From Gammaproteobacteria bacterium (GTDB lineage Bacteria > Pseudomonadota > Gammaproteobacteria > Eutrophobiales > Eutrophobiaceae), in the NCBI GenBank assembly GCA_038922795.1, contig JBCKWI010000003.1, positions 5,118-69,117 of the forward strand: 64,000 nucleotides of DNA. Direction: 5' to 3'. The notes beneath the pieces were generated by a model, which saw only the letters and a list, made by a program, of their open reading frames with translations, ran no database searches and was not told the DNA's origin. Below, piece after piece: positions 2,145 to 60,546 of the stretch (its first letter is position 1; the number at the start of each line of letters is the position of its first letter). Position numbers and translations under genes: made by a program.

Positions 2145-2329
2145 TTTTTTTATTAAAAATTGTGTCTGCCGCCGGTTGTTTGCACTGGTCAAAAATTAAG
2201 TACATGGATGTTCAAATGTCGCTGGCGCAGGATGCGCATGAGCGACTAAATCACTCCGGCACTGACGAATCCCCGGAAAACCTGTATATCAATAAAAAAT
2301 GCTTGCGCTATTAAAGCAATAAGTCATTA

Positions 2330-4135
2330 ATGTTTGATTACCGGATAATGAAAATGGCAAAAAAAGAAAAAACATCAAAACAGAACCTCACGGTCAGTCT
2401 GGACAAGAATGATCTGGACGAAATATTCGAAGAAGTCGAAAAAAGTCAACTACGAAAAAAGAATAAAAAGAAAACCGAAAAACAGGAACCGTTGGAGAAA
2501 CAGCTTTGGAAAGCGGCGGGTAAACTGCGCAAGAACATTGACGCCGCCGAATACAAGCATATTGTGCTTGGCCTGATCTTTCTGAAATACATCTCCGACG
2601 CCTTCGAAGAATTATTCAACAAGCTGCAAGCGGGTAAAGGTGACTATGCCGGGGCCGACCCGGAAGACAAGGATGAGTACAAGGCCGAGAATGTCTTCTT
2701 CGTACCACCCACAGCGCGTTGGTCATTTCTGTTATCCAAAGCCAAACAACCTGAGATTGGCAAGTTTGTCGATGAGGCGATGGATGCCATTGAAAAGGAA
2801 AACGCCTCATTAAAAGGAGTGCTGCCAAAAGTCTTTGCACGGCAAAACCTCGATCCCGCCAGTTTGGGTGGATTAATCGATCTGGTCGGTAATATTGCGT
2901 TAGGTGATGCCAAGGCCAGAAGTGCCGATGTACTCGGCCATGTGTTTGAATATTTCCTCGGGGAATTTGCACTGGCTGAAGGCAAACAAGGCGGACAATT
3001 CTATACACCGCGCAGTATTGTTGAATTACTGGTGGAAATGCTGGGACCCTACAAAGGCCGGGTGTTCGATCCCTGTTGCGGCTCCGGCGGTATGTTCGTG
3101 CAATCGGAAAAATTCGTGGCCGAACATCAGGGCAAGATCAATGACATCTCCATCTACGGACAGGAAAGCAACCAGACCACATGGCGGCTGTGCAAAATGA
3201 ACCTTGCCATTCGTGGTCTTGACAGTTCACAGGTGAAATGGAACAACGAGGGATCATTTTTAAATGATGGTCACAAGGATTTGAAAGCCGATTTTGTCAT
3301 TGCCAATCCACCGTTTAATGACAGCGACTGGAGCGGTGAACTCCTGCGCACCGATGGCCGCTGGCAATATGGTGCGCCACCCACGGGCAATGCCAACTTT
3401 GCCTGGTTGCAACATTTTGTTTATCACCTCTCCCCCACCGGCCAGGCCGGTGTAGTGCTGGCAAAAGGGGCTTTAACCTCTAAAACCTCCGGCGAAGGTG
3501 AAATCAGAAGGCGTTTAATCGAAGAAGGCAACCTGATTGATTGCATTGTTAATCTCCCCGCCAAACTGTTTTTAAATACCCAGATCCCGGCAGCGTTGTG
3601 GTTCATGAGCCGTAATCGCAAAGGCACCTCTCCCGCCGGAAGAGGCGGGGGTGAGGGATTCCGTAACCGCAGCAATGAAATCCTCTTTATCGATGCCCGC
3701 AATATGGGTCATTTGATCAATCGCCGTACCCGTGAGCTTTCCCATGAAGATACCAAACACATTGCCAACACCTACCATACATGGAGAAACAACCACTCTC
3801 CCTCCAAAACGCATCGTCATTCCGGCCAAGCGAAGCGTGAGCCGGAATCCAGTAAAAATACCAACACACATCGTCATTCCGCACTTGATGCGGAATCCAG
3901 TCAATTAATCTATCAAGACATTCCCGGCTTCTGCGCTTCAGTCTCCCTGGATCGTGTAAAAGAACTGGACTACGTATTAACTCCAGGCCGTTATGTGGGG
4001 TTACCGGATAATGACGATGATTTTAATTTCAAGGAACGATTCACATCACTCAAAGCCGAGTTTGAACAGCAGTTAAAAGATGAAGCGAAACTCAATAAAA
4101 TTATTGCTGAGAATCTAGCGAGGGTGAAGGTGTGA
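2330..4135 (+). CDS. hsdM: type I restriction-modification system, DNA methyltransferase subunit M
   Basis: It has the HsdM N-terminal domain ([32 protein letters not shown]), the SAM motif ([11 protein letters not shown]) and the catalytic NPPF ([11 protein letters not shown]). The real start is probably ATG 2348 or 2354 (MKMAKK/MAKK). It carries an in-frame 123-nt palindromic repeat insertion near the 3' end. Confidence 0.92.
3813..3901. repeat. Two small palindromic units (catcgtcattccggc...gccggaatccagt and catcgtcattccgca...tgcggaatccagt) inserted in frame inside hsdM
   Basis: Direct reading. Tandem units have ATTCCGG..CCGGAAT / ATTCCGCA..TGCGGAAT stems. Other HsdM proteins run ...YHTWR...YxDIPGFC... 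without the about 41 aa [41 protein letters not shown]. Confidence 0.7.
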
Positions 4136-5268
4136 GTGGGTGGAGAGAATATAAACTTATAGAGATTACTGAGCCAGTAAAGGAAACATACTTACCAACT
4201 GCTTCAGAAGAACTAGATTACATTGGGCTAGAGCATATCGGACAAGAAAGTTTACGATTAATAGCTATAGGTAAATCATCAGATGTGACAAGTAATAAAT
4301 TTCTATTTAGAGAGAACGATGTTCTTTTTGGGAAACTTCGACCTTATTTTAGAAAAATAATTAAGGCAAAATATTTTGGTATATGCTCAACAGATATTTG
4401 GGTTTTCAGGGCAAAAAAAGGATTTTCACAAGATTTTTTATTTTATTTTCTTGCAAACTGGGATTTTGTTGATACTGCTAATGGCGGTGAAGGTGGATCT
4501 CGAATGCCCAGAGCAGATTGGAACTTCCTTAAATCTACATTATGGAATGTTCCAGATCATACTGAGCAAAAAGCCATCGCATCAGTCCTCAGCAGTCTGG
4601 ATGACAAAATCGACCTGCTTCACCGCCAGAATAAAACTCTCGAAGCCATGGCTGAAACCCTGTTCAGACAATGGTTCATCGAAGAAGCAAGAGAAGATTG
4701 GCAGGAAAAACCTCTAAGCAAAATTGCAAATTTTTTGAATGGTCTTGCTTGTCAAAAATATCCTCCAAAAAACGAAATTGATAAATTACCCGTATTAAAA
4801 ATAAAAGAACTAAGCAGTGGTATATCTGATTCATCTGATTGGGCAACAACTGACGTAAAACCTGAATATGTTATTGAGAATAGCGATGTGATTTTTGCGT
4901 GGTCAGCATCCCTTATGGTTAAGATTTGGGATGGAGATAAATGTATCTTGAACCAACATTTATTTAAAGTTAGCTCTACTGAATATCCAAAATGGTTTTA
5001 TTATTGGTGGTGCAAACATCATCTGGAAGAATTCATATCGATATCTGCGAGTCATGCAACAACTATGGGCCATATCAAGCGAGGTGACTTGGATGTGGCT
5101 ATGGTGCTGATTCCAAAGGAAAGCGAGTTCAAATCTATCAATTCACAAATGGAACCATTACTCGATAAGCAAATAGAAAACTCTAAACAAATTCAAATCC
5201 TCGAAAAACTCCGCGATACATTATTACCTAAACTCATGAGCGGCGAAATTAGAGTCAAGATAAATTAA
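4132..5268 (+). CDS. hsdS: type I R-M specificity subunit S
   Basis: Its ATG overlaps the hsdM stop (ATGA). Two AT-rich target-recognition domains flank a GC-richer conserved central region (...[37 protein letters not shown]...), and a C-terminal conserved helix ([17 protein letters not shown]) is present. Confidence 0.88.
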
Positions 5269-5269
5269 C

Positions 5270-6769
5270 ATGGACGGGATATTCATAAATAAAATCAATA
5301 TTAAAAATTACAAATGTTTTGTTGATCAGGATATCAATTTCAGCGTTCCTGACGGTAAAACACTTGGTAGCGGCCTGAACATTTTAATTGGCGAGAACGG
5401 AGTTGGTAAAACAGCTGTGCTTGAAGGATTCAACATGTTGACACAGACATATTTTACTCTTGAAAATCGATTGGATATTCGAGATTTCAACGATTTCAAA
5501 AAAGAAATTCAAATCACGGCCCAGACTGAAGAATTTAGGTGCAAGATGCCTTATCCGGGCAATTATTTTATTTCCAATGGCCTTGAGATAACAGCAAAAA
5601 ATAGAGACAGAAAAGCATCTGGGAAATTATTGTCCTCTTCATTCTCTACATCTTCTTCGTTCATGCCCACAACAGAGTATTACTTCAACTCAAAAGGTGA
5701 ACCATCAAAGAACCTGATTCCCCTTTATACAATGTATAAGGATGACACCATTGAGGGAGACGGAATAAACATTTTTTATTTTGATAAGAACAGAACAAGA
5801 CAATTGTCATCTGGCACTTATAAAACAACGTTTGAACGTATATGCGACGACTTGAATTGGAGATTTAATAAAGAATTAACTCCTGAATTAATAGATACAG
5901 TGCTTGAAAATATATCAGGCGAATATTTTAAAACTGTCAGAGAGAACGCCCAAAAAGGAATTGGACAAAAAATAGCTGATGAATTAGCTAGCTTTTTTAA
6001 TTCAGAATCATACAAAAACCTAAAAATAGAACTTCTAAATCTTTTACACCCTTACACAGATGCGTTTTTTGCAGTAAGAGAGGAATCTGACTTAAAGCAA
6101 ATAAAAACAAAAGATCTTGGTTCAGGAGTCGAGATGATCCTTACTCTTTTACTGCTTAAAAATATAGCAAGCCAATCAAAAGGCAGTATTATTTTCCTAA
6201 TTGATGAACCTGAATTGCATCTCCATCCAAAAGCACAAGATAAATTAATGGAGTTATTGTTGGATGAGTCGATTGATAAACAAATTATATTAAGTTCTCA
6301 TTCGCCTTACATTTTCAGGAATTGTCTTGATAAAGCTGGCTCTATCATAGTAATGAATAAAGCAGCTAATTTTTCTATAAATTTTCATTATGCTCAGAAA
6401 AATGAATGGGGGCTATTCCCTTGGAGTCCCTCTTGGGGAGAAATTAATTTCTTGGCATTGAATTTGCCAACAGTTGAATTTCATAATGAATTATACGGTA
6501 GGTTACAAGAAATATCGGGACAGAATAGAATAGAAAACTTTGATAAGTGGTTGAATGAAAAATTTGGAATCCCATTAATTTCTTCATGGATAAGACTTAA
6601 TAATGGCGTAGCTGGAAATACTGATACCGTATCTCTTCAAACATATATTAGGCATTCTATACATCATCCTGAAAATAATTTAAATAAACCATTTACAGTT
6701 GATGAATTATCTCAATCTATTCAGAAGATGATCCATGTCTTAAGAAAGCTCAATGACCAAAATCACTGA
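5270..6769 (+). CDS. ABC/OLD-like AAA ATPase (AAA_15/AAA_21-type) embedded in the hsd operon; putative anti-phage/Abi accessory protein
   Basis: Walker A is GENGVGKT and Walker B plus D-loop is IIFLIDEPELHLHPKAQ, with H-loop LSSHSP. It is AT-rich. It starts 1 nt after the hsdS stop and overlaps the hsdR start by 17 nt. No TOPRIM or HNH domain was recognised in the C-terminal about 150 aa. Confidence 0.7.
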   Translation: MDGIFINKINIKNYKCFVDQDINFSVPDGKTLGSGLNILIGENGVGKTAVLEGFNMLTQTYFTLENRLDIRDFNDFKKEIQITAQTEEFRCKMPYPGNYFISNGLEITAKNRDRKASGKLLSSSFSTSSSFMPTTEYYFNSKGEPSKNLIPLYTMYKDDTIEGDGINIFYFDKNRTRQLSSGTYKTTFERICDDLNWRFNKELTPELIDTVLENISGEYFKTVRENAQKGIGQKIADELASFFNSESYKNLKIELLNLLHPYTDAFFAVREESDLKQIKTKDLGSGVEMILTLLLLKNIASQSKGSIIFLIDEPELHLHPKAQDKLMELLLDESIDKQIILSSHSPYIFRNCLDKAGSIIVMNKAANFSINFHYAQKNEWGLFPWSPSWGEINFLALNLPTVEFHNELYGRLQEISGQNRIENFDKWLNEKFGIPLISSWIRLNNGVAGNTDTVSLQTYIRHSIHHPENNLNKPFTVDELSQSIQKMIHVLRKLNDQNH

Positions 6770-9700
6770 AAATACTATCGAAGACTTTGCCATCGAGTTA
6801 TTCGAAGCTCTCGGTTATGACTATGTGTATGCACCGGATATCGCGCCTGATGGTGATGAGCCGGAGCGCAAAATTTACGAAGACGTATTACTGATTGGCA
6901 GATTGCAGAACGCCATTCGCCGGATTAACCCTTCCATATCGGGTGATGCCCAACTAGAGGCATTAAAAGAAATTCAACGTATTCATTCCCCGGAATTATT
7001 AACCAACAATGAGACTTTTCATCGGCTTCTGACTGAAGGCGTGAATATCAGCTATCAGCAGGATGGCAACCAACGCGGCGATCTGGTGTGGCTGGTTGAT
7101 TTCAAAAATCCGGAAAACAATGAATTTTTGGTGGCGAATCAATTCACGGTCATTGAAAACGGCCAGAACAAACGCCCGGACATCATCCTGTTTGTGAATG
7201 GTATTCCTTTGGTGGTGATCGAGTTAAAGAATGCCGCCGATGAAAATACAACTATCCTTTCCGCCTTCAAACAATTGCAAACCTATAAGGAAACGATCTC
7301 CAGCCTGTTTACCTACAATGGCTTGATGGTGATTTCTGATGGGCTGGAAGCCAAGGCAGGTTCATTGTCTGCGGGCTTCAGCCGGTTTATGACCTGGAAA
7401 TCAGCCGATGGGAAGGCCGAAGCCTCGCCCTTGATCAGCCAACTGGAAACCCTAATCAAGGGCATGTTGAACAAGCACACCTTGCTGGATTTGATTCGTC
7501 ATTTTATCGTTTTTGAAAAGTCCAAAAAGGAAGATCTCAAAACCGGTGTCACCACCATTTCCACCGTCAAAAAGCTGGCTGCTTATCATCAATACTATGC
7601 CGTGAACCGTGCAGTAGAATCAACTTTGCGTGCCGCTGGTTATATTTGTGAAGATACTGGCGGAAAGAACATCATGGAGTCGCCGGAAAGTTATGGTTTA
7701 CCGGGGGTAAAAGCCCAACCCGCAGGCGACAAGAAAGGTGGTGTGGTCTGGCATACACAAGGCAGTGGCAAGTCTCTATCCATGGTGTTTTATACCGGCA
7801 AGATTGTATTGATGATGGATAACCCCACCGTGGTGATGATTACCGACCGTAATGATCTGGATGATCAGCTTTTCGATACCTTTGCCGCCTCCGCGCAATT
7901 ATTAAGACAGGAACCGAAACAGGTTGAAGATCGGAAACAACTCAAGGAATTATTAAAAGTGGCCTCCGGCGGCGTGATCTTTACCACCATCCAGAAATTC
8001 CAGCCTGAAGAAGGCAATATCTACGAAGAACTCTCTGCACGTAAAAACATAGTGGTTATCGCGGATGAAGCACACCGCACCCAATATGGTTTCAAGGCAA
8101 AGACCATCGACGAGAAAAATAAGCAGGGTGATGTGGTTGGCAAGAAGATTGTTTATGGTTTTGCCAAGTACATGCGCGATGCCCTGCCCAATGCGACTTA
8201 TTTAGGGTTTACCGGCACTCCGATTGAAAAAACGGATATCAACACGCCCGCCGTGTTCGGCAATTACATTGATATTTACGATATTGCCCAGGCGGTGGAA
8301 GACGGCGCCACGGTACGCATTTATTATGAAAGCCGGTTGGCCAAGGTCAATCTCAGTGAGGAAGGTAAAAAGCTGATCGCTACGCTGGATGAAGAACTGG
8401 ATCAGGATGAGCTCACCGAGACCCAGAAGGCCAAGTCGAAATGGACGCAACTTGAGGCATTGGTTGGCAGTGAAAACCGCATCAAAAAGATTGCTCAGGA
8501 TATCGTCACTCACTTTGAACAACGTCAGGCCGTGTTTGAAGGCAAAGTTATGATCGTCGCTATGTCGCGCAGGATTGCCGTGGATTTGTATGAAGCGATT
8601 ATCAAGCTGAAACCTGACTGGCATTCTGATGATTTGAGTAAAGGGAAAATCAAGGTAGTGATGACAGCGGCTTCATCTGATGGCCCGAAGATGGCCAAAC
8701 ATCACACCACCAAAGAGCAACGCAAGGCACTGGCCGAGCGCATGAAGGCCAATGATGATGAGTTAAAGCTGGTGATTGTGCGGGATATGTGGCTGACGGG
8801 GTTTGACGCGCCAAGTATGCACACGCTTTATATCGACAAACCCATGAAAGGACACAACCTGATGCAGGCGATTGCACGGGTCAACCGTGTTTACATAGAC
8901 AAACCCGGTGGGTTGGTTGTGGATTATTTAGGAATCGCGGCTGATCTTAAAGAGGCTTTGTCATTTTATTCCGATGCAGGTGGCAAGGGTGATCCAACTA
9001 TTCTTCAGGAACAGGCAGTGCAATTGATGCTGGAAAAACTGGAAGTGGTTGCAGGTATGTATCATGGTTTTCCTTATGAGGAATATTTTGAGGCAGATAC
9101 TTCCAGAAAGCTCTCGCTGATTCTTGCCGCAGAGGAACATATTCTAGGTATTGAAGATGGCAAGAAGCGTTATATCAATGAAGTCACTGCGTTGTCGCAG
9201 GCATTTGCAATTGCCATTCCCCATGCACAAGCCATGGACGTTAAGGATGAAGTGGCATTCTTTCAGGCTGTTAAAGCGCGATTGGTGAAGTTTGACAGTA
9301 CCGGATCAGGAAAAACAGATGAAGCGATAGAAACCACCATTCGCCAGGTGATTGATCAGGCATTGGTGTCTGAACAGGTCATTGATGTGTTTGATGCTGC
9401 CGGTATCAAAAAGCCGGACATTTCGATTCTTTCAGAAGAATTCCTGTTGGAATTGAAAGGAATGAAACACAAAAATATCGCGCTGGAGGTGTTAAAGAAA
9501 CTGCTCAATGATGAAATCAGGGCGCGGGCCAAGAAGAATCTGGTAAAGAGCAAATCCTTAATGGAAATGCTGGAAACCGCAATCAAAAAATACCATAACA
9601 AGATATTGACGGCTGCGGAAGTAATCAATGAGCTTATTATACTGAGCAAGGAAATTGTAAAGATGGACAGCGAAGCCGCGGCTCTGGGCCTGTCTGATTT

Positions 9701-9986
9701 TGAATATGCTTTTTATACTGCTGTTGCCGATAATGACAGCGCTAGAGAATTAATGGCGGTAGCCAAACTCAGGGAATTGGCGGTTGTGCTCACAGAAAGA
9801 GTCCGGCAAAACGCTTCAATTGACTGGACAATTAAAGAAAGCGTGAAGGCCAAACTGAAAGTAATTGTAAAGAGAACTCTACGGCAATACGGTTATCCGC
9901 CTGATATGCAAAAACTCGCGACTGAAACTGTACTAAAACAAGCGGAAATGATTGCGGATGAACTGGCACATACAGAATCAATCTAG
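6753..9986 (+). CDS. hsdR: type I restriction enzyme R subunit (helicase/endonuclease)
   Basis: 1077 aa. It has the HsdR N-terminal nuclease region (MTKITENTIEDFAIELFEALGYDY...), DEAD-box helicase motifs (VVWHTQGSGKS; VVIADEAHRTQ; LGFTGTPI) and a C-terminal HsdR domain. Confidence 0.93.
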   Translation: MTKITENTIEDFAIELFEALGYDYVYAPDIAPDGDEPERKIYEDVLLIGRLQNAIRRINPSISGDAQLEALKEIQRIHSPELLTNNETFHRLLTEGVNISYQQDGNQRGDLVWLVDFKNPENNEFLVANQFTVIENGQNKRPDIILFVNGIPLVVIELKNAADENTTILSAFKQLQTYKETISSLFTYNGLMVISDGLEAKAGSLSAGFSRFMTWKSADGKAEASPLISQLETLIKGMLNKHTLLDLIRHFIVFEKSKKEDLKTGVTTISTVKKLAAYHQYYAVNRAVESTLRAAGYICEDTGGKNIMESPESYGLPGVKAQPAGDKKGGVVWHTQGSGKSLSMVFYTGKIVLMMDNPTVVMITDRNDLDDQLFDTFAASAQLLRQEPKQVEDRKQLKELLKVASGGVIFTTIQKFQPEEGNIYEELSARKNIVVIADEAHRTQYGFKAKTIDEKNKQGDVVGKKIVYGFAKYMRDALPNATYLGFTGTPIEKTDINTPAVFGNYIDIYDIAQAVEDGATVRIYYESRLAKVNLSEEGKKLIATLDEELDQDELTETQKAKSKWTQLEALVGSENRIKKIAQDIVTHFEQRQAVFEGKVMIVAMSRRIAVDLYEAIIKLKPDWHSDDLSKGKIKVVMTAASSDGPKMAKHHTTKEQRKALAERMKANDDELKLVIVRDMWLTGFDAPSMHTLYIDKPMKGHNLMQAIARVNRVYIDKPGGLVVDYLGIAADLKEALSFYSDAGGKGDPTILQEQAVQLMLEKLEVVAGMYHGFPYEEYFEADTSRKLSLILAAEEHILGIEDGKKRYINEVTALSQAFAIAIPHAQAMDVKDEVAFFQAVKARLVKFDSTGSGKTDEAIETTIRQVIDQALVSEQVIDVFDAAGIKKPDISILSEEFLLELKGMKHKNIALEVLKKLLNDEIRARAKKNLVKSKSLMEMLETAIKKYHNKILTAAEVINELIILSKEIVKMDSEAAALGLSDFEYAFYTAVADNDSARELMAVAKLRELAVVLTERVRQNASIDWTIKESVKAKLKVIVKRTLRQYGYPPDMQKLATETVLKQAEMIADELAHTESI

Positions 9987-10153
9987 AAATTTTCGATTAA
10001 TTTCAGTTGTTGCCATAACCATTTTTTACAGGCTATTATCAATCTGTGCAGTGTATGTGAGCGATACAGGGAAGTGAGGCTCCCTAAGAAACAACCACTT
10101 TACAGAGGGGTTTTTATTATCCAACATTGGCGTTAGCCCGAGAGATAACGGAA

Positions 10154-10307
10154 GATGAAGAAAAAAATCAAATATACTGACGATCCACCAGATGGAGAAC
10201 CAATCGGAGAACTTATTCCAATCCCGGATTTTCTTCCTCCCCCTGAAAAACTGGTATTCAAGAAAGACCCTTCATTGAAGAAGCCCAGTCCTTCCAGGAA
10301 AAAGTAA
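10154..10307 (+). pseudogene. 51-codon ORF resembling the N-terminus of a BrnA/CopG-family antitoxin, apparently truncated by the downstream repeat cluster
   Basis: MKKKIKYTDDPPDGEPIGELIPIPDFLPPPEKLVF... resembles my memory of BrnA-like antitoxin N-termini, and then runs into repeats. No partner toxin is present upstream. It is below the 60-aa ORF cutoff. Confidence 0.25.
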
Positions 10308-10404
10308 GCAGAACATTTAGTGTCCCCTTCGGGGATGGTGGAAACCCCTCGCCTTCAGGCGAAGCAAGCTAGTGCGACATGTTCGCGTAGCGAACCTGAG
10401 CGTA

Positions 10405-10560
10405 AAACCCTCTCCCCTCGGGAGAGGGCACGATTACAGGATGTAATCGGTAGAGTCGAGCCGGGAGCGGAGACCGAGGGTGAGGGAAAAGCGATCAGGA
10501 TCATGCTGAGGTACAGCTTCCCTCATCCCCTGCCCTTCTCCCGGAGGGAGAAGGGGGTGT
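10405..10560. repeat. Composite REP cluster (family A units interleaved with a family B unit gattacaggatgtaatcggtagagtcgagccgggagcggagaccgag)
   Basis: Direct reading. ccctctcccctcgggagaggg, gggtgaggg and ccctcatcccc...ctcccggagggagaaggggg are present. The predicted ORF 10320-10640 lies wholly in repeats and is spurious. Confidence 0.8.
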
Positions 10561-10677
10561 TAGCCAGGTTTGAAGCCACCGGCTTGCAGCCGGTGGTAGT
10601 TCACTGGTTACGCAAAAAACCCCTGTCACATTTGATATGACAGAGGTGTGAGGAGAAGGTGAAATTTCCGGTCAGGT

Positions 10678-11952
10678 TTATTCAATATCGAAATCCTTTT
10701 TATAACCTTTTTTATTATCCACCAGCAGTTCATCTGTAAAAGGTGTTTTACCGAGACTGATCCTGAAGGATGGTACGGTAATATCTTCACAGTTGGGTTG
10801 TTTTGCTGACGGCATGGCTGCCCTGGCCTTTTCTATCAGGTCCTGATGATACCATTTCAACTCGGCAATAAATTCTTCCCTGATAACGGGTGTTACCGGA
10901 ATCACGTTCATGCCGAATTTCAGCCGTTGTATCAGATTTGGCATGACCGGCTCCAGGTTCAGTTTGTCGTTAACTGAAGTCTCTTTGCCTATGCAATTCA
11001 CCAGGTCATCAACCACATCTATGGCATGTGCCCAGGCTTTGGACTCAACACCTTCCTTGATGTAGATTTTCAAAAGCAGTTTGCTCCAGTGATTAAAAAG
11101 AAAATCCCTGGCAAACTCCGGCATGGTGATATTGCCAAGATGTTGCGTGATCTCGTTTCTGATGATGCGATTGGCAATGATAAAATAATTCTTGTCCTTG
11201 ATAATGCCGGAATTGTGCAGTGTGTGGTTTTGCTGATTTTCGGCTGCGTCTGTCTGCAGGTAAGTGTTAGAGCCCGACCTGGTCTGCGTGCTGATCTTTT
11301 TCTCACTCAGTAATGTATCAATGTCCACATAGGCAGCGGGCAGACTTGAGGTCACATATTTCTCAAACAACTTGAACAGGATGAGTTTTATTTCAATCCC
11401 GGATTCAATATTCTGACACGCCTCCTGAAAAGCGGTGCAGACTGTTTCCGGCCGGACTGGGTTCAGGCGTTTTTCTACTTTCACGCTGCTGAGTAATTCA
11501 CCCATGCGCTGGTCCAGGGTAAACAATGCCTCGTGGCAATCATGCCGGACCTTTCCAACCATAGCATTTAATGCGATGGATTCCTCAATATCAATTTCCT
11601 TGTCAGTGCTTTTTTCCGTTACAGGTCCATCACTGTTTTCATTCGTGCGAATAGAACTGTTAAACAGTTTTGAAAAATTCTCTTTGAAGTCAGCTTCAAT
11701 GGATGTCCTTTTCAGGCGTACTTCGCGCATGGCATTGAAGTAATAATGATGTTCAGACGGGCCGCTTTTCTGCACCAGATCAAACAGGATATCGTCTGCC
11801 ATATTCAGCATGACGGACAATCCATGTGACAGGCGATCTGTCATCAAGTCGTGGCATTCATTCAGTAGTTCCAGTGAACCTGTATTTAATGTATTCATAT
11901 GGGTTTTGTAGCTCACCATTCTGACGATGTTTTCAGAATTCTTATCATTCAT
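10678..11952 (-). CDS. hypothetical protein (AT-rich; N-terminus faintly DUF1631-like)
   Basis: 424-aa ORF with no internal stops and AT-rich codon usage distinct from its neighbours. The family assignment is tentative. Confidence 0.55.
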   Translation of the reverse strand: MNDKNSENIVRMVSYKTHMNTLNTGSLELLNECHDLMTDRLSHGLSVMLNMADDILFDLVQKSGPSEHHYYFNAMREVRLKRTSIEADFKENFSKLFNSSIRTNENSDGPVTEKSTDKEIDIEESIALNAMVGKVRHDCHEALFTLDQRMGELLSSVKVEKRLNPVRPETVCTAFQEACQNIESGIEIKLILFKLFEKYVTSSLPAAYVDIDTLLSEKKISTQTRSGSNTYLQTDAAENQQNHTLHNSGIIKDKNYFIIANRIIRNEITQHLGNITMPEFARDFLFNHWSKLLLKIYIKEGVESKAWAHAIDVVDDLVNCIGKETSVNDKLNLEPVMPNLIQRLKFGMNVIPVTPVIREEFIAELKWYHQDLIEKARAAMPSAKQPNCEDITVPSFRISLGKTPFTDELLVDNKKGYKKDFDIE

Positions 11953-58160: not shown

Positions 58161-58234
58161 CTTTTTAGAAACCAGAAAACTTAATTAATAAGTGTGAATC
58201 TGATACCTGCCAGTTTATTGGAGAATACTGCGAT

Positions 58235-58507
58235 ATGGATTTTGAGTGGGATTCGTTAAAAGCCCGTACTAATGAAAGCAAGCACGGGGTCTCCTTCTTT
58301 GAGGCATGCGAAGTATTTGATGATAAGCTTTCCTCAACAGTTAGAGATCCTGATAATTCACTGGATGAGGATAGATATCTGATTTTTGGAATATCAAAAA
58401 GTGGCAATTATCTGGTTGTATCCTAGACTGAACGTGTTGACCGAATTAGACTGAGTTCAGCCCGGCAGATGACCCTGCGAGAACGCAAAGCCTATGAACA
58501 GCGATAA
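58235..58507 (+). pseudogene. brnT: BrnT-like (DUF497) toxin with an in-frame amber stop at 58427-58429
   Basis: MDFEWDSLKARTNESKHGVSFFEACEVFDD...LIFGISKSGNYLVVS-TAG-TERVDRIRLSSARQMTLRERKAYEQR*. The BrnT C-terminus continues in the same frame after the stop. Confidence 0.65.
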
Positions 58508-58697
58508 AGATACCCTTAGAGATGAATATCCGGAAGAACTGATCAAATCAGGTGTCCGTGGAAAATACACAGAGAGCTACCGCAAAAGTACAAACATCGT
58601 TCTGATTGATCCGGATCTGTACAAACTATTCCCCGATTCGGAAGCCGTTAACCGTGCACTTCGCGAGTATGCTTCAACAAGACGAACGGCAACTTAA
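58494..58697 (+). CDS. brnA: BrnA-like (CopG/RHH) antitoxin
   Basis: The start overlaps the brnT 3' end. The C-terminal ...PDSEAVNRALREYAS resembles BrnA. Confidence 0.6.
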   Translation: MNSDKDTLRDEYPEELIKSGVRGKYTESYRKSTNIVLIDPDLYKLFPDSEAVNRALREYASTRRTAT

Positions 58698-58794
58698 TAT
58701 CGCCATCGAGAAAGCCGGTATCACCCACTGTTGGGAAAATACCTTCGATGAACCGGTGAAGGCGTTAGTAGTGGATATCTTCAAACCGGAGTAA
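58693..58794 (+). pseudogene. diverged duplicate of the last about 32 codons of the cupin gene
   Basis: IAIEKAGITHCWENTFDEPVKALVVDIFKPE* versus the cupin C-terminus IAIEKDGVTHWWENTFEEPVKALVVDIFTPE*. About 85% nt identity with 58063-58160. Confidence 0.6.
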
Positions 58795-58850
58795 CCAGAG
58801 TCAATTGGTCTTGATTCTTTTATTTTGTTTGATCAAAGAGGTAGATTTAC

Positions 58851-60056
58851 ATGTCTGAAAGCTGGGCAGAAAGGCAAAGACACACGAACCGTTTAGCTAG
58901 GCGTCTTGCTGATTATTTGTTTTCGAGACATAAAATTACTGCTCGTCAGATTTACGGATTATCAAAAATTGCTTGGATAACGAATAGTTATGAAGGAGAA
59001 GCAGCAGCATATATTGCTAGCACAAAAATACCCGCTTTAGGTGATGTGTTCGGAAAAGATTTTACAAACAAATCGTTGGAGGAAGTAGCTAGCATAATTG
59101 CTTCAGAAACAGATGATGAATCTCTGATTGATTTGATAAAAGGTCATTCTGGTTTTACGAATTTTTACAAGGCATACAGAAATAGCGTCTTTGCTTGGAT
59201 TGAGAATAATCATTCAGTGCTATTACCTTTATATAAAGCTGCATTTAGTTCTGAGAGCGATGAAGCAAGATTAAAAATAGTTTCAACTATAGCCAAATTA
59301 CCAGGTATTCCAAAGGCTAATCATCCTGAGCAACAAATGAGGCCAGAATACTTTCTAACACCAGCATTTTTTATGCTTGACCCTGAAATTCGTTTCCCAC
59401 TTATAAACGGGAACGAATGGGTACACAATCTTCTCAGCGATCTGAACGTGGCGGATTCAGATCTTATCTCACAATATAAAGCAATGGTGCAATTGTATGG
59501 AAATGGAGGAATTACAGATGCAGCAGATCTCGATCAAGCGGGAAGAGATATGCCAGATTTCTTAAATACAAATGAACGAACGGCAACAAAAGGACTCCTT
59601 GAGAAAAAGAACTCTACAGAAAATGGAGCACTTCCATTAAAGGATGAAGCAGACGTTGAGGCCATAAGGGAAGCCGGAACAGTAACTCATCGGCGAATAC
59701 ATAATCATCTCACTAATAATTTAAAGAAATCACTCAAAAAATATACTCTCCTAGAGGGCAATAATCATTCTTGCATGTTTGATGTATTGGTGAAGCAATA
59801 CGATAATAATAGAAATGATTTGCTAATTGAGGTAAAAAGTTCTATCGATTCCCCTCAGATTAGAATGGCTGTAGGTCAGCTATTTGACTATTGGTTTTCC
59901 TTGAAAGGAGACGAAGAACCCCATATGGCTGTGTTATTACCTAATCGGCCAAGCAAAGATGTTGCAGACTTTCTTAAATGGATGGATATTGGATTAATGT
60001 GGTTTGATAACTATCAACTTTGTACGGATGATAATTGGCTTAAACATCTTGCTTGA
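58851..60056 (+). CDS. hypothetical protein with a C-terminal RecB-type PD-(D/E)xK nuclease motif set; candidate single-gene defence nuclease
   Basis: AT-rich 401-aa ORF. The C-terminus reads ...HSCMFDVLV(K)...NDLLIEVKSS...VGQLFDYW, which fits D / ExK / QxxxY. The N-terminal about 280 aa is unrecognised. Confidence 0.55.
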   Translation: MSESWAERQRHTNRLARRLADYLFSRHKITARQIYGLSKIAWITNSYEGEAAAYIASTKIPALGDVFGKDFTNKSLEEVASIIASETDDESLIDLIKGHSGFTNFYKAYRNSVFAWIENNHSVLLPLYKAAFSSESDEARLKIVSTIAKLPGIPKANHPEQQMRPEYFLTPAFFMLDPEIRFPLINGNEWVHNLLSDLNVADSDLISQYKAMVQLYGNGGITDAADLDQAGRDMPDFLNTNERTATKGLLEKKNSTENGALPLKDEADVEAIREAGTVTHRRIHNHLTNNLKKSLKKYTLLEGNNHSCMFDVLVKQYDNNRNDLLIEVKSSIDSPQIRMAVGQLFDYWFSLKGDEEPHMAVLLPNRPSKDVADFLKWMDIGLMWFDNYQLCTDDNWLKHLA

Positions 60057-60546
60057 ATTTATATTCAATCTCTATCACGAAATAACGACTCACCTGTCCT
60101 TCAGCTTTTACAACAATTTCATCTTTCCGTGATTTGCCCAATAGCGCTTTACTCATCGGCGAATCAATACTGATGTAATTCCTGTCCGGATCAATTTCAT
60201 CTGCTCCGACAATACGATAAGTGTTCTCTACACCTTCTTCGTTTTCGAGGGTAACGATGGCGCCGAAATACACTCGGCTGGTATCGCCAACTTCGGAAAC
60301 AATCTTTAACTTCGGCATCCTCTGTTGCAAATAACGAATACGCCTGTCGATCTCGCGCAATTCTTTTTTGCGGTAGATGTATTCGGCATTCTCGGATCGA
60401 TCGCCTTCCGCTGCGGCTGCTGTCAAAGCTTTGGTCACATCTCTGCGTCGAACCCACAGACCACTCAGTTCATTTTCCAGGTGTTGATAACCTTCAGGAG
60501 TTATGTAGGGTGATGAAGCAGTTGGAGGTGGACGCCAGCGTGTCAT
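60040..60546 (-). CDS. greB: transcription elongation factor GreB
   Basis: ITPEGYQHLENEL...GDRSENAEYIYRKKELREIDRRIRYLQQRM matches GreB closely. Start taken at MTRWRPP (ATG 60546). Confidence 0.85.
   Translation of the reverse strand: MTRWRPPPTASSPYITPEGYQHLENELSGLWVRRRDVTKALTAAAAEGDRSENAEYIYRKKELREIDRRIRYLQQRMPKLKIVSEVGDTSRVYFGAIVTLENEEGVENTYRIVGADEIDPDRNYISIDSPMSKALLGKSRKDEIVVKAEGQVSRYFVIEIEYKFKQDV

Follow-up and report, generated by a model that had tools for sequence, protein, structure and literature searches.

In EcoprrI, prrC lies between hsdS and hsdR, and in PrrC and RloC an ABC-type NTPase controls a C-terminal HEPN anticodon nuclease (PMC3632139, PMC3710099). PrrC has been proposed to provide a suicidal second line of defence once restriction has been disabled (PMC3632139, PMC3710099). 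In PARIS (AriA/AriB), GajA, the PtuA proteins of Septu and retrons, and P2 OLD, an ABC ATPase sensor is likewise coupled to a nuclease effector; anti-restriction proteins are a frequent trigger, and many of these defences are nested inside other immune systems (10.1101/2024.01.29.577857; PMC12839542). ABC ATPases are the commonest family embedded in multi-gene immune systems (Payne et al. 2024, 10.1101/2024.01.29.577857), and such embedded ABC-ATPase defences have been documented (10.1101/2024.01.29.577857; PMC12839542). Furthermore, fusions of ABC and HEPN domains have been noted (PMC3710099). In this study, a type I restriction–modification (R-M) operon with the order hsdM–hsdS–ATPase–hsdR was analyzed in a 64 kb stretch of DNA from a Gammaproteobacteria bacterium (contig JBCKWI010000003.1), referred to below as the window, with particular attention to the 499-amino-acid (499 aa) ABC ATPase encoded between hsdS and hsdR and to its C-terminal HEPN-like domain.

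The reading that we favour, and consider somewhat more probable than its rivals taken together, is that this protein is a self-contained OLD-type ABC ATPase sensor fused to a HEPN-type ribonuclease (RNase) effector, i.e. an autonomous abortive-infection protein embedded in immune operons. A fusion of an ATPase with a HEPN domain inside an R-M operon is a known design, and the locus is not a new kind of system; the family is nevertheless widespread and unannotated, and is distinct from PrrC and RloC.

Domain architecture of the ATPase–HEPN-like protein

The N-terminal module of the protein belongs to the OLD/AAA_15 group of ABC ATPases and has the ABC head fold of the OLD-like clade. Its nearest models and structures in PADLOC, NCBIfam and the Protein Data Bank (PDB) are those of OLD, AriA, PtuA and GajA; the score against the NCBIfam PtuA model was 53 (cutoff 500), and the PADLOC matches all end at about aa 350–378. 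In addition to the Walker A motif, a signature-like LGSGVE, the segment LIDEPELHLHP and an H-loop SSHSP were found, with most of the motif residues invariant in 30 homologues. The Walker B and D-loop segment aligns with the same region of the OLD, AriA, PtuA and GajA structures. An earlier prediction made from the sequence of the window (the original prediction) had recognized in DEPELHLHP a signature common to these four proteins, and its classification of the ATPase was correct; the search with hidden Markov models that it had suggested returned AAA_15 and AAA_21 (Table 1), and the defence ATPases were nearest in PADLOC.

The C-terminal domain has no model in Pfam, NCBIfam or PADLOC 2.0. Three conserved blocks, PWSPSWGEIN, (T)vEFHNELYG and R[N/H]sIHHPEN, were recognized in it. 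In a set composed of 150 representatives of 50%-identity clusters and the first 120 homologue matches, with about 266 members compared, R461 is conserved in 100%, H465 in 99%, H466 in about 100% and N469 in 96%, and position 462 is occupied by asparagine (79%) or histidine (19%). The structure prediction of the C-terminus that had been suggested in the original prediction was carried out with AlphaFold (AF2) for residues 372–499 and gave a confident model (pLDDT 90.9, pTM 0.85). The model comprises helices at 389–397, 402–416 and 421–432, a β-hairpin at 438–454, and helices at 456–465 and 477–498, and is all-helical apart from the one hairpin. The Rx4H motif closes the penultimate core helix and extends into the loop that leads to the last long helix, E407 being placed one core helix earlier; the second and third core helices are separated by an inserted helix and the hairpin (421–454). 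The helices at 402–416 and 456–465 were also present in a model of the whole protein.

The HEPN superfamily has been defined by an Rx4–6H motif at the end of helix 3 with a polar residue after the arginine, an acidic residue in helix 2 and an insert between helices 2 and 3 (PMC3710099). At the level of sequence, R461-x4-H466, with a polar asparagine or histidine after the arginine, matches the Rx4–6H signature of Anantharaman et al. 2013. In the predicted model the placement of the motif at the end of helix 3, the acidic residue in helix 2 and the insert between helices 2 and 3 fit the definition, with E407 as the candidate for the conserved acidic residue of helix 2. Marginal matches of individual members were obtained with the Pfam models Ribonuc_2-5A (0.0028), HEPN_Apea (0.03) and Cas_Csm6_HEPN (0.033), and three of the four marginal PADLOC matches were to HEPN-containing models (Csx20, Cas13a and RTasHEPN). 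The lower-placed entries in the comparison of the C-terminal domain were 1wwp, Csm6, 5yep, 1ylm, Cas13bt3 and Csx1. The HEPN assignment is well supported, not proven, and the domain is predicted to be a metal-independent RNase. The observation in the original prediction that a TOPRIM or HNH partner is missing holds for the operon, which also lacks DUF4435; however, the ATPase is not without an effector, as a probable RNase is fused to it in the form of the HEPN-like C-terminus with its Rx4H motif.

More than 1,200 homologues of the 499 aa protein were found in a search of 5.8 billion proteins. The 120 that were listed are mostly 480–520 aa in length and 47–75% identical, and align over 95–100% of the query, so that the C-terminus is part of the conserved unit. 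Searched exhaustively with HMMER and a profile of the C-terminal domain, the representatives of 50%-identity clusters gave 1,047 matches at E ≤ 1e-3, of which 586 reached E ≤ 1e-10; the family thus contains at least 1,000 such clusters. Most of these matches are 430–510 aa in length and carry the domain at the C-terminus. AAA_15 or AAA_21 was found upstream of the domain in all ten scanned proteins, which included long (536–769 aa) and short forms; shorter entries appear to be pieces of proteins with this architecture. The ATPase–HEPN fusion appears to be obligatory, and since every scanned member has AAA_15 or AAA_21 upstream, the C-terminal domain behaves as the effector end of the ATPase. 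Family members are currently labelled only 'AAA family ATPase' or 'ATP-dependent nuclease', and the signature PWSPSWGEIN ... EFHNELYG ... R[NH]xIHHPEN can be used for annotation, which would provide a definable domain signature for a C-terminal domain that is at present unmodelled.

The operon itself contains all three subunits of a type I R-M system (HsdM, HsdS and HsdR). The Methylase_S match of HsdS in Pfam falls into two stretches, and the PADLOC Specificity_I alignment spans aa 1–377. HsdR matched HSDR_N (2.6e-56), SWI2_SNF2 (2e-76) and T1RH-like_C (7.8e-127) in Pfam and exceeded the cutoff of TIGR00348; its closest solved relative is EcoR124I HsdR (2.4e-35). The four open reading frames (ORFs) are co-directional and lie where the original prediction had placed them, with the junctions of 1 and 17 nucleotides (nt) that it had described on either side of the ATPase gene. 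At the first junction (GTGA), the hsdS GTG at 4132 overlaps the hsdM TGA by 4 nt; at the second, the ATPase ATG at 5270 stands 1 nt past the hsdS TAA; and at the third, the hsdR ATG at 6753 lies 17 nt ahead of the end of the ATPase ORF. Sites resembling promoters or terminators occur within the R-M block no more often than in shuffled sequence, i.e. at chance level. Because the junctions are tight and the internal sites are at chance level, an operon with translational coupling is the natural reading of the junction geometry.

Table 1. Positions in the window of the genes of the R-M operon and of the domains and motifs of the ATPase–HEPN-like protein.
Feature	Position	Strand	Details
hsdM, type I R-M methyltransferase subunit	2330..4135	+	601 aa; N6_Mtase 4.5e-100, HsdM_N 1.3e-25, PADLOC MTase_I 2e-185
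hsdS, specificity subunit	4132..5268	+	378 aa, GTG start; Methylase_S 4.1e-24, PADLOC Specificity_I 8.7e-76
ABC ATPase gene with C-terminal HEPN-like domain	5270..6769	+	499 aa; AAA_15 2.6e-26, AAA_21; GC 33%
OLD-type ABC ATPase module, aa 1-371	5270..6382	+	poorly modelled helical insert at aa ~174-266
Walker A / P-loop GENGVGKT, aa 41-48	5390..5413	+	G41, E42, N43, G46, K47 and T48 invariant in 30 homologues
Walker B and D-loop IFLIDEPELHLHP, aa 308-320	6191..6229	+	D312-P320 almost wholly invariant (30 homologues)
C-terminal HEPN-like helical domain, aa ~385-499	6422..6766	+	predicted RNase effector
EFHNELYG, aa 403-410, second core helix	6476..6499	+	H405 in 96% and E407 in 97% of 269 aligned members; helix 402-416
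RHSIHHPEN, aa 461-469, Rx4H (R461...H466), end of third core helix	6650..6676	+	helix 456-465, then loop
hsdR, restriction subunit	6753..9986	+	1077 aa; HSDR_N, SWI2_SNF2, T1R_D3-like, T1RH-like_C; TIGR00348 1.4e-184
Low-GC block (0.32-0.38)	4000..6800	.	coincides with hsdS and the ATPase gene

Relation to described defence systems

The protein resembles PrrC and RloC in having an N-terminal ABC-type NTPase and a C-terminal HEPN-type domain with Rx4H, here a predicted RNase. With PrrC it also shares the placement of its gene, which is inserted in a type I R-M operon after hsdS and before hsdR (hsdM–hsdS–prrC–hsdR in the E. coli prr locus), and the proposed role of a suicidal second line of defence (PMC3632139, PMC3710099). 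This is, however, an analogy and not a homology. No sequence relationship extends past the P-loop, the window ATPase belonging to the OLD/AAA_15 group, and its HEPN-like domain resembles the MNT-associated and AbiA type, unlike that of PrrC and RloC. Membership of the PrrC/RloC/APECO1_4465 group (Pfam AAA_13) was rejected, the window protein having no AAA_13 match at E ≤ 0.01. When it was compared with the AAA_13 protein (2e-111) of a P2-like prophage of E. coli APEC O1, which is probably the APECO1_4465 prototype, no significant similarity was found (best BLASTP E-value 0.008 over 29 aa, hhalign probability 0.2).

Members of the present family also occur in E. coli prophages, where copies lie directly after the integrase in ten of 5,426 complete genomes and are annotated 'ATP-dependent nuclease'. 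The C-terminal domain of this E. coli member was matched by hhalign with an E-value of 5e-43, and the protein diverges from the window protein mainly upstream of about aa 280, a region that includes the helical insert. E. coli prophages carry two unrelated genes of the ABC–HEPN type, one from the OLD-type family and one encoding an AAA_13 protein. The former is seen in the chromosome of E. coli SCU-316, where it encodes 482 aa directly after the integrase (L148, 6998–8446); the latter, of 737 aa, lies in E. coli APEC O1 in a P2-like hotspot, with the gene for the replication endonuclease on one side and the portal gene on the other (L147, 45932–48148).

PARIS (AriA/AriB), GajA, Septu and retron PtuA, and P2 OLD share with the window protein the class of ATPase and the Walker B/D-loop signature. 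They differ in the effector, which is a TOPRIM domain in OLD, GajA and AriB and an HNH domain in PtuB, whereas in the window protein it is a fused HEPN-like domain. Membership of PARIS, Septu, Gabija and OLD was rejected because no TOPRIM, HNH or DUF4435 domain or neighbour was found. There was no TOPRIM match in the window ATPase, the OLD and GajA alignments stopping at about aa 350–376, and neither an AriB (DUF4435/TOPRIM) nor a PtuB (HNH) neighbour is present: the adjoining genes are hsdS and hsdR only, and no partner is conserved across 86 loci.

The HEC-01 to HEC-04 systems of Payne et al. 2024 are likewise defence genes nested in multi-gene immune systems, and the window protein matches HEC-01A through its ATPase region (1.2e-16, PADLOC). 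However, the HEC ATPases are paired with TOPRIM, NERD or PIN domains, and HEC-08 is a DUF3644 HEPN protein without an ATPase; an ATPase–HEPN fusion is absent from the candidates tested in that study (10.1101/2024.01.29.577857). The family is probably the 'ERFG_01251' ABC–HEPN group of PMC3710099, to which it was matched by descriptive features. That group was presented without experiments, and embedding between hsdS and hsdR was not described for it (Anantharaman et al. 2013). In our literature search, no paper was found that tests an ATPase–HEPN fusion of this OLD-type, HEPN-like kind.

Genomic contexts and alternative readings

Loci were gathered by exact-protein lookup and a genome scan; in addition, metagenomes and viral sequences were scanned with patterns particular to the C-terminal domain. 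The genome scan, which used whole-protein patterns, returned mostly generic P-loop and Walker B matches and five true loci; in the viral scan, seven IMG/VR contigs carried family members. Neighbouring genes were labelled by BLAST and Pfam, and the type I count is a strict one. Type I genes adjoin the ATPase gene in 21 of 86 non-identical homologous loci. The tree contained 79 full-length sequences (78 loci and the window), of which 20, the window included, are linked to type I genes, nine to CRISPR genes and 21 to neither (no type I or CRISPR genes within 2.5 kb upstream and 3.5 kb downstream), while 29 have flanks that are too short. About 40% of the readable contexts of full-length members are therefore type I R-M operons and about 18% are type I-C CRISPR-Cas loci; these proportions are rough, the counts having been taken from the best 80 of 421 metagenome matches and the type I genes having been detected by BLAST with three reference systems.

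The frequency of type I contexts invites the view that the protein is a strict guard of the PrrC type, physically held latent by HsdMSR and freed only when the type I enzyme is put out of action by a phage anti-restriction factor like Stp, Ocr or ArdA, in which case it would depend on the surrounding R-M genes. The enrichment is very large, and the slot between hsdS and hsdR is the one occupied by prrC in EcoprrI (PMC3632139; 10.1101/2024.01.29.577857). The order hsdS–ATPase–hsdR is the usual one, and the ORFs overlap or abut in the window and in loci L055, L056, L059, L096, L106, L107 and L135; the L055 homologue, which is 75% identical to the window ATPase, has the same 1 nt and 17 nt junctions. 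The HsdR proteins of the embedding loci are either 22–27% or 54–84% identical to that of the window, so that at least two divergent type I families are involved. Furthermore, the sensing of Ocr by OLD-type ATPases, AriA among them, is established (10.1101/2024.01.29.577857; PMC12839542). However, we regard this strict form of guarding as less likely, because many copies stand alone or are embedded in CRISPR-Cas loci. The 21 full-length members that are linked to neither type of gene have no type I genes within the distances given above, and others lie in CRISPR-Cas, prophage or plasmid settings. The type-I-embedded members are polyphyletic, being scattered over at least ten lineages among stand-alone ones in a neighbour-joining tree, so that linkage to R-M genes is facultative in this family; prrC, in contrast, is reportedly always R-M-linked and rloC rarely so (PMC3458546). 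The arrangement is also variable: other genes stand between the ATPase gene and hsdR in L048 (encoding Fic, ORF6N, NOV_C and an NB-ARC-like protein) and in L138, and the order is hsdM–ATPase–hsdS–hsdR in L104 and L145.

One clade of about ten loci (L063, L067, L068, L073, L075, L097, L099, L101, L108 and L131) lies inside type I-C CRISPR-Cas systems between cas3 and cas5d/csd1, in agreement with the 2013 description of the ERFG_01251 group (PMC3710099). The remaining readable members stand alone in islands, prophages or plasmids. Such copies were found beside HicA, with two different left flanks; in an integrase island with AlpA, a primase, a KAP NTPase and SIR2; in an element adjoining an Eco57I-like methylase and a T5orf172/ResIII protein; beside DUF2726 and RelE; and on a Klebsiella IncFIB plasmid, where insertion sequence (IS) elements flank the gene and a TIR gene lies close by. 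When the neighbours in the 86 loci were clustered all against all in search of a conserved partner, only Hsd genes and, in one clade, cas genes recurred. The ATPase–HEPN gene forms, as a single gene, a mobile unit that is complete in itself; it strongly favours immune operons, in particular the slot between hsdS and hsdR, but is not bound to them. More than half of the readable homologues lack type I genes in their vicinity, and the protein must therefore be capable of self-regulation and of working alone. For the same reason the proposal in the original prediction that the ATPase uses the type I enzyme was not sustained, whereas the general idea of an abortive-infection back-up is supported.

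In one defence island (L003, 676–10802), a type IIG Eco57I/MmeI-like methylase-nuclease is followed successively by a DUF3644 (HEPN) protein, an AAA_13 protein of the RloC/PrrC type, a member of the present family, a protein that matches 23S_rRNA_IVP weakly (under the Pfam cutoff) and a DUF2851 protein. Three of these neighbouring proteins, all different, come from HEPN-bearing families.

ABC ATPases undergo ATP-driven engagement of their heads and HEPN enzymes are dimeric, which is the basis for an analogy in which the autonomous ATPase–HEPN protein favoured here would be activated by dimerization. In the uninfected cell the ATPase module would keep the HEPN domain inactive. An infection cue, for which a phage anti-restriction or DNA-mimic protein and aberrant DNA are candidates, would be sensed through the variable helical insert of the ATPase (aa ~174–266), the likely sensor. 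ATP-dependent engagement of the heads would then pair two HEPN domains to form a composite Rx4H active site, and the activated enzyme would cleave tRNA or other RNAs of translation, thereby aborting the infection. As a mobile single-gene module, the gene lodges repeatedly in immune operons; in the window it occupies the hsdS–hsdR slot, where it would be co-transcribed with the R-M genes and probably translationally coupled, and would back up restriction. The domain architecture, the conserved motifs, the apparently obligate fusion, the geometry of the operon and the recurrent, facultative embedding were observed directly; we infer the RNase activity, the RNA target, the trigger, activation through dimerization and any physical link to HsdMSR. 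Anti-restriction proteins are attractive candidates for the trigger, because Ocr and Stp activate PARIS and PrrC (10.1101/2024.01.29.577857) and the systems that harbour the gene are targets of such proteins; the ATPase–HEPN protein may also be coupled to the R-M enzyme.

Several results weigh against this reading, in addition to the roughness of the context proportions. Foldseek comparison of the C-terminal model with the PDB gave no significant match (best E 0.75), a search of PDB sequences with the C-terminal profile using hmmsearch returned only spurious gp41 matches at E > 0.2, and no Pfam HEPN model was matched above threshold (best E 0.0028–0.03). The cluster of H405, E407, H465 and H466 could instead be the metal site of another enzyme or part of a ligand sensor. 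Moreover, the RNase and defence role of the whole family is a prediction from sequence.

The lack of a significant HEPN match in both Foldseek and the sequence profiles leaves room for a C-terminus that is not a nuclease, the protein being an accessory ATPase (a sensor of DNA ends or anti-restriction, or a regulator of restriction alleviation) that acts through HsdR or through a partner elsewhere in the genome, a view close to that of the original prediction. The operon has no separate nuclease gene, and many OLD-type ATPases act with a separately encoded partner (10.1101/2024.01.29.577857; PMC12839542). Nevertheless, this seems improbable because the polar residues of the domain are invariant: the near-total invariance of R461, H465, H466, N469, H405 and E407 across separate 50%-identity clusters points to a catalytic site. 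Besides the Hsd and Cas genes, each of which is found in a subset of the loci, no neighbour is conserved, and stand-alone copies that are flanked by IS elements or lie beside an integrase argue for a complete single-gene unit. Finally, a functionless passenger, i.e. an insertion, selfish or in decay, that is carried along by the R-M operon (the idea of a 'genomic sink') without benefit to the host, might be suspected from the low GC content, the cassette-like pattern and the accumulation of such genes in defence islands (10.1101/2024.01.29.577857), but is very improbable because the motifs are intact and the junctions conserved, the ORF being full length with all ATPase and C-terminal motifs kept, the 75%-identical L055 retaining the same junctions, and so precise a coupling geometry not being expected to outlast decay.

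If the prediction of an autonomous ATPase–HEPN effector holds, the family would be a widespread single-gene abortive-infection system with at least 1,000 clusters at 50% identity, present in many phyla and in E. coli prophages. The PrrC design would then be known from two evolutionarily independent examples, and one could test directly if residence in R-M and CRISPR operons reflects functional guarding or mere co-transfer; a fused HEPN domain would join TOPRIM, HNH, REase and PIN in the effector repertoire of OLD ATPases. A more far-reaching version is offered tentatively, as a possibility about which we are doubtful: the PrrC principle may have been re-invented independently from an OLD-type ABC ATPase and an MNT/AbiA-like HEPN domain, giving a portable guard for the hsdS–hsdR slot, the type I-C cas3–cas5 slot and type IIG islands. 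Such a guard would sense phage inhibitors as AriA senses Ocr and would cleave tRNA or mRNA with its HEPN domain, and the low-GC hsdS and ATPase genes would be swapped as one cassette, so that specificity and toxin diversify together.

Base composition and surroundings of the operon

The guanine–cytosine (GC) content is 36.3% in hsdS and 33.3% in the ATPase gene, compared with 47.8% in hsdM, 46.0% in hsdR and 47.9% in the whole window (standard deviation 4.0 in 1.5 kb windows). At third codon positions (GC3) the contrast is 29% against 51%, and the hsdS–ATPase stretch is the GC minimum of the window. The AT-richness described in the original prediction was thus confirmed (33–36% GC against about 47% around). 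Its explanation by a horizontally acquired cassette fared less evenly. Comparison of L096 with the window gave identities of 70% for HsdM and 73% for HsdR but only 36% for HsdS and 33% for the ATPase, a pattern which suggests that the hsdS and ATPase block is exchanged, or diverges rapidly, as a unit between conserved hsdM and hsdR flanks, and which fits a swap. However, in all 13 homologous type I loci compared (L048, L055, L056, L059, L074, L096, L104, L106, L107, L127, L135, L138 and L145), hsdS and the ATPase gene lie 5–14 GC points under hsdM and hsdR, irrespective of the GC content of the host. Because the dip recurs in every one of these loci, it is a systematic trait of the hsdS and ATPase genes and no proof of recent transfer into the source genome, and low GC as a sign of recent horizontal acquisition was downgraded. 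The sole other stretch of the window below 40% is a patch at about 58200–60500 (0.38–0.40 in 1.5 kb windows) around an ORF of 401 aa on the plus strand (58851–60056).

The R-M block is flanked by aceK (381–2144) on one side and by a minus-strand DUF1631 gene on the other, and no integrase, tRNA or convincing flanking repeats were found around 2150–10680. The called start of hsdM places about 54 residues before HsdM_N, which begins at aa 55, and the stretch 2330–2490 is A-rich with internal ATGs; the true start may lie further downstream than called. The DUF1631 ORF (10678–11952) encodes 424 aa, compared with 741 positions in the Pfam model, and the better of its two matching stretches covers profile positions 8–222. 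It ends 30 nt before a terminator-like hairpin with a 13 bp stem (10619–10647), and could represent a short form of the gene, or a truncated copy, bordering the inserted block.

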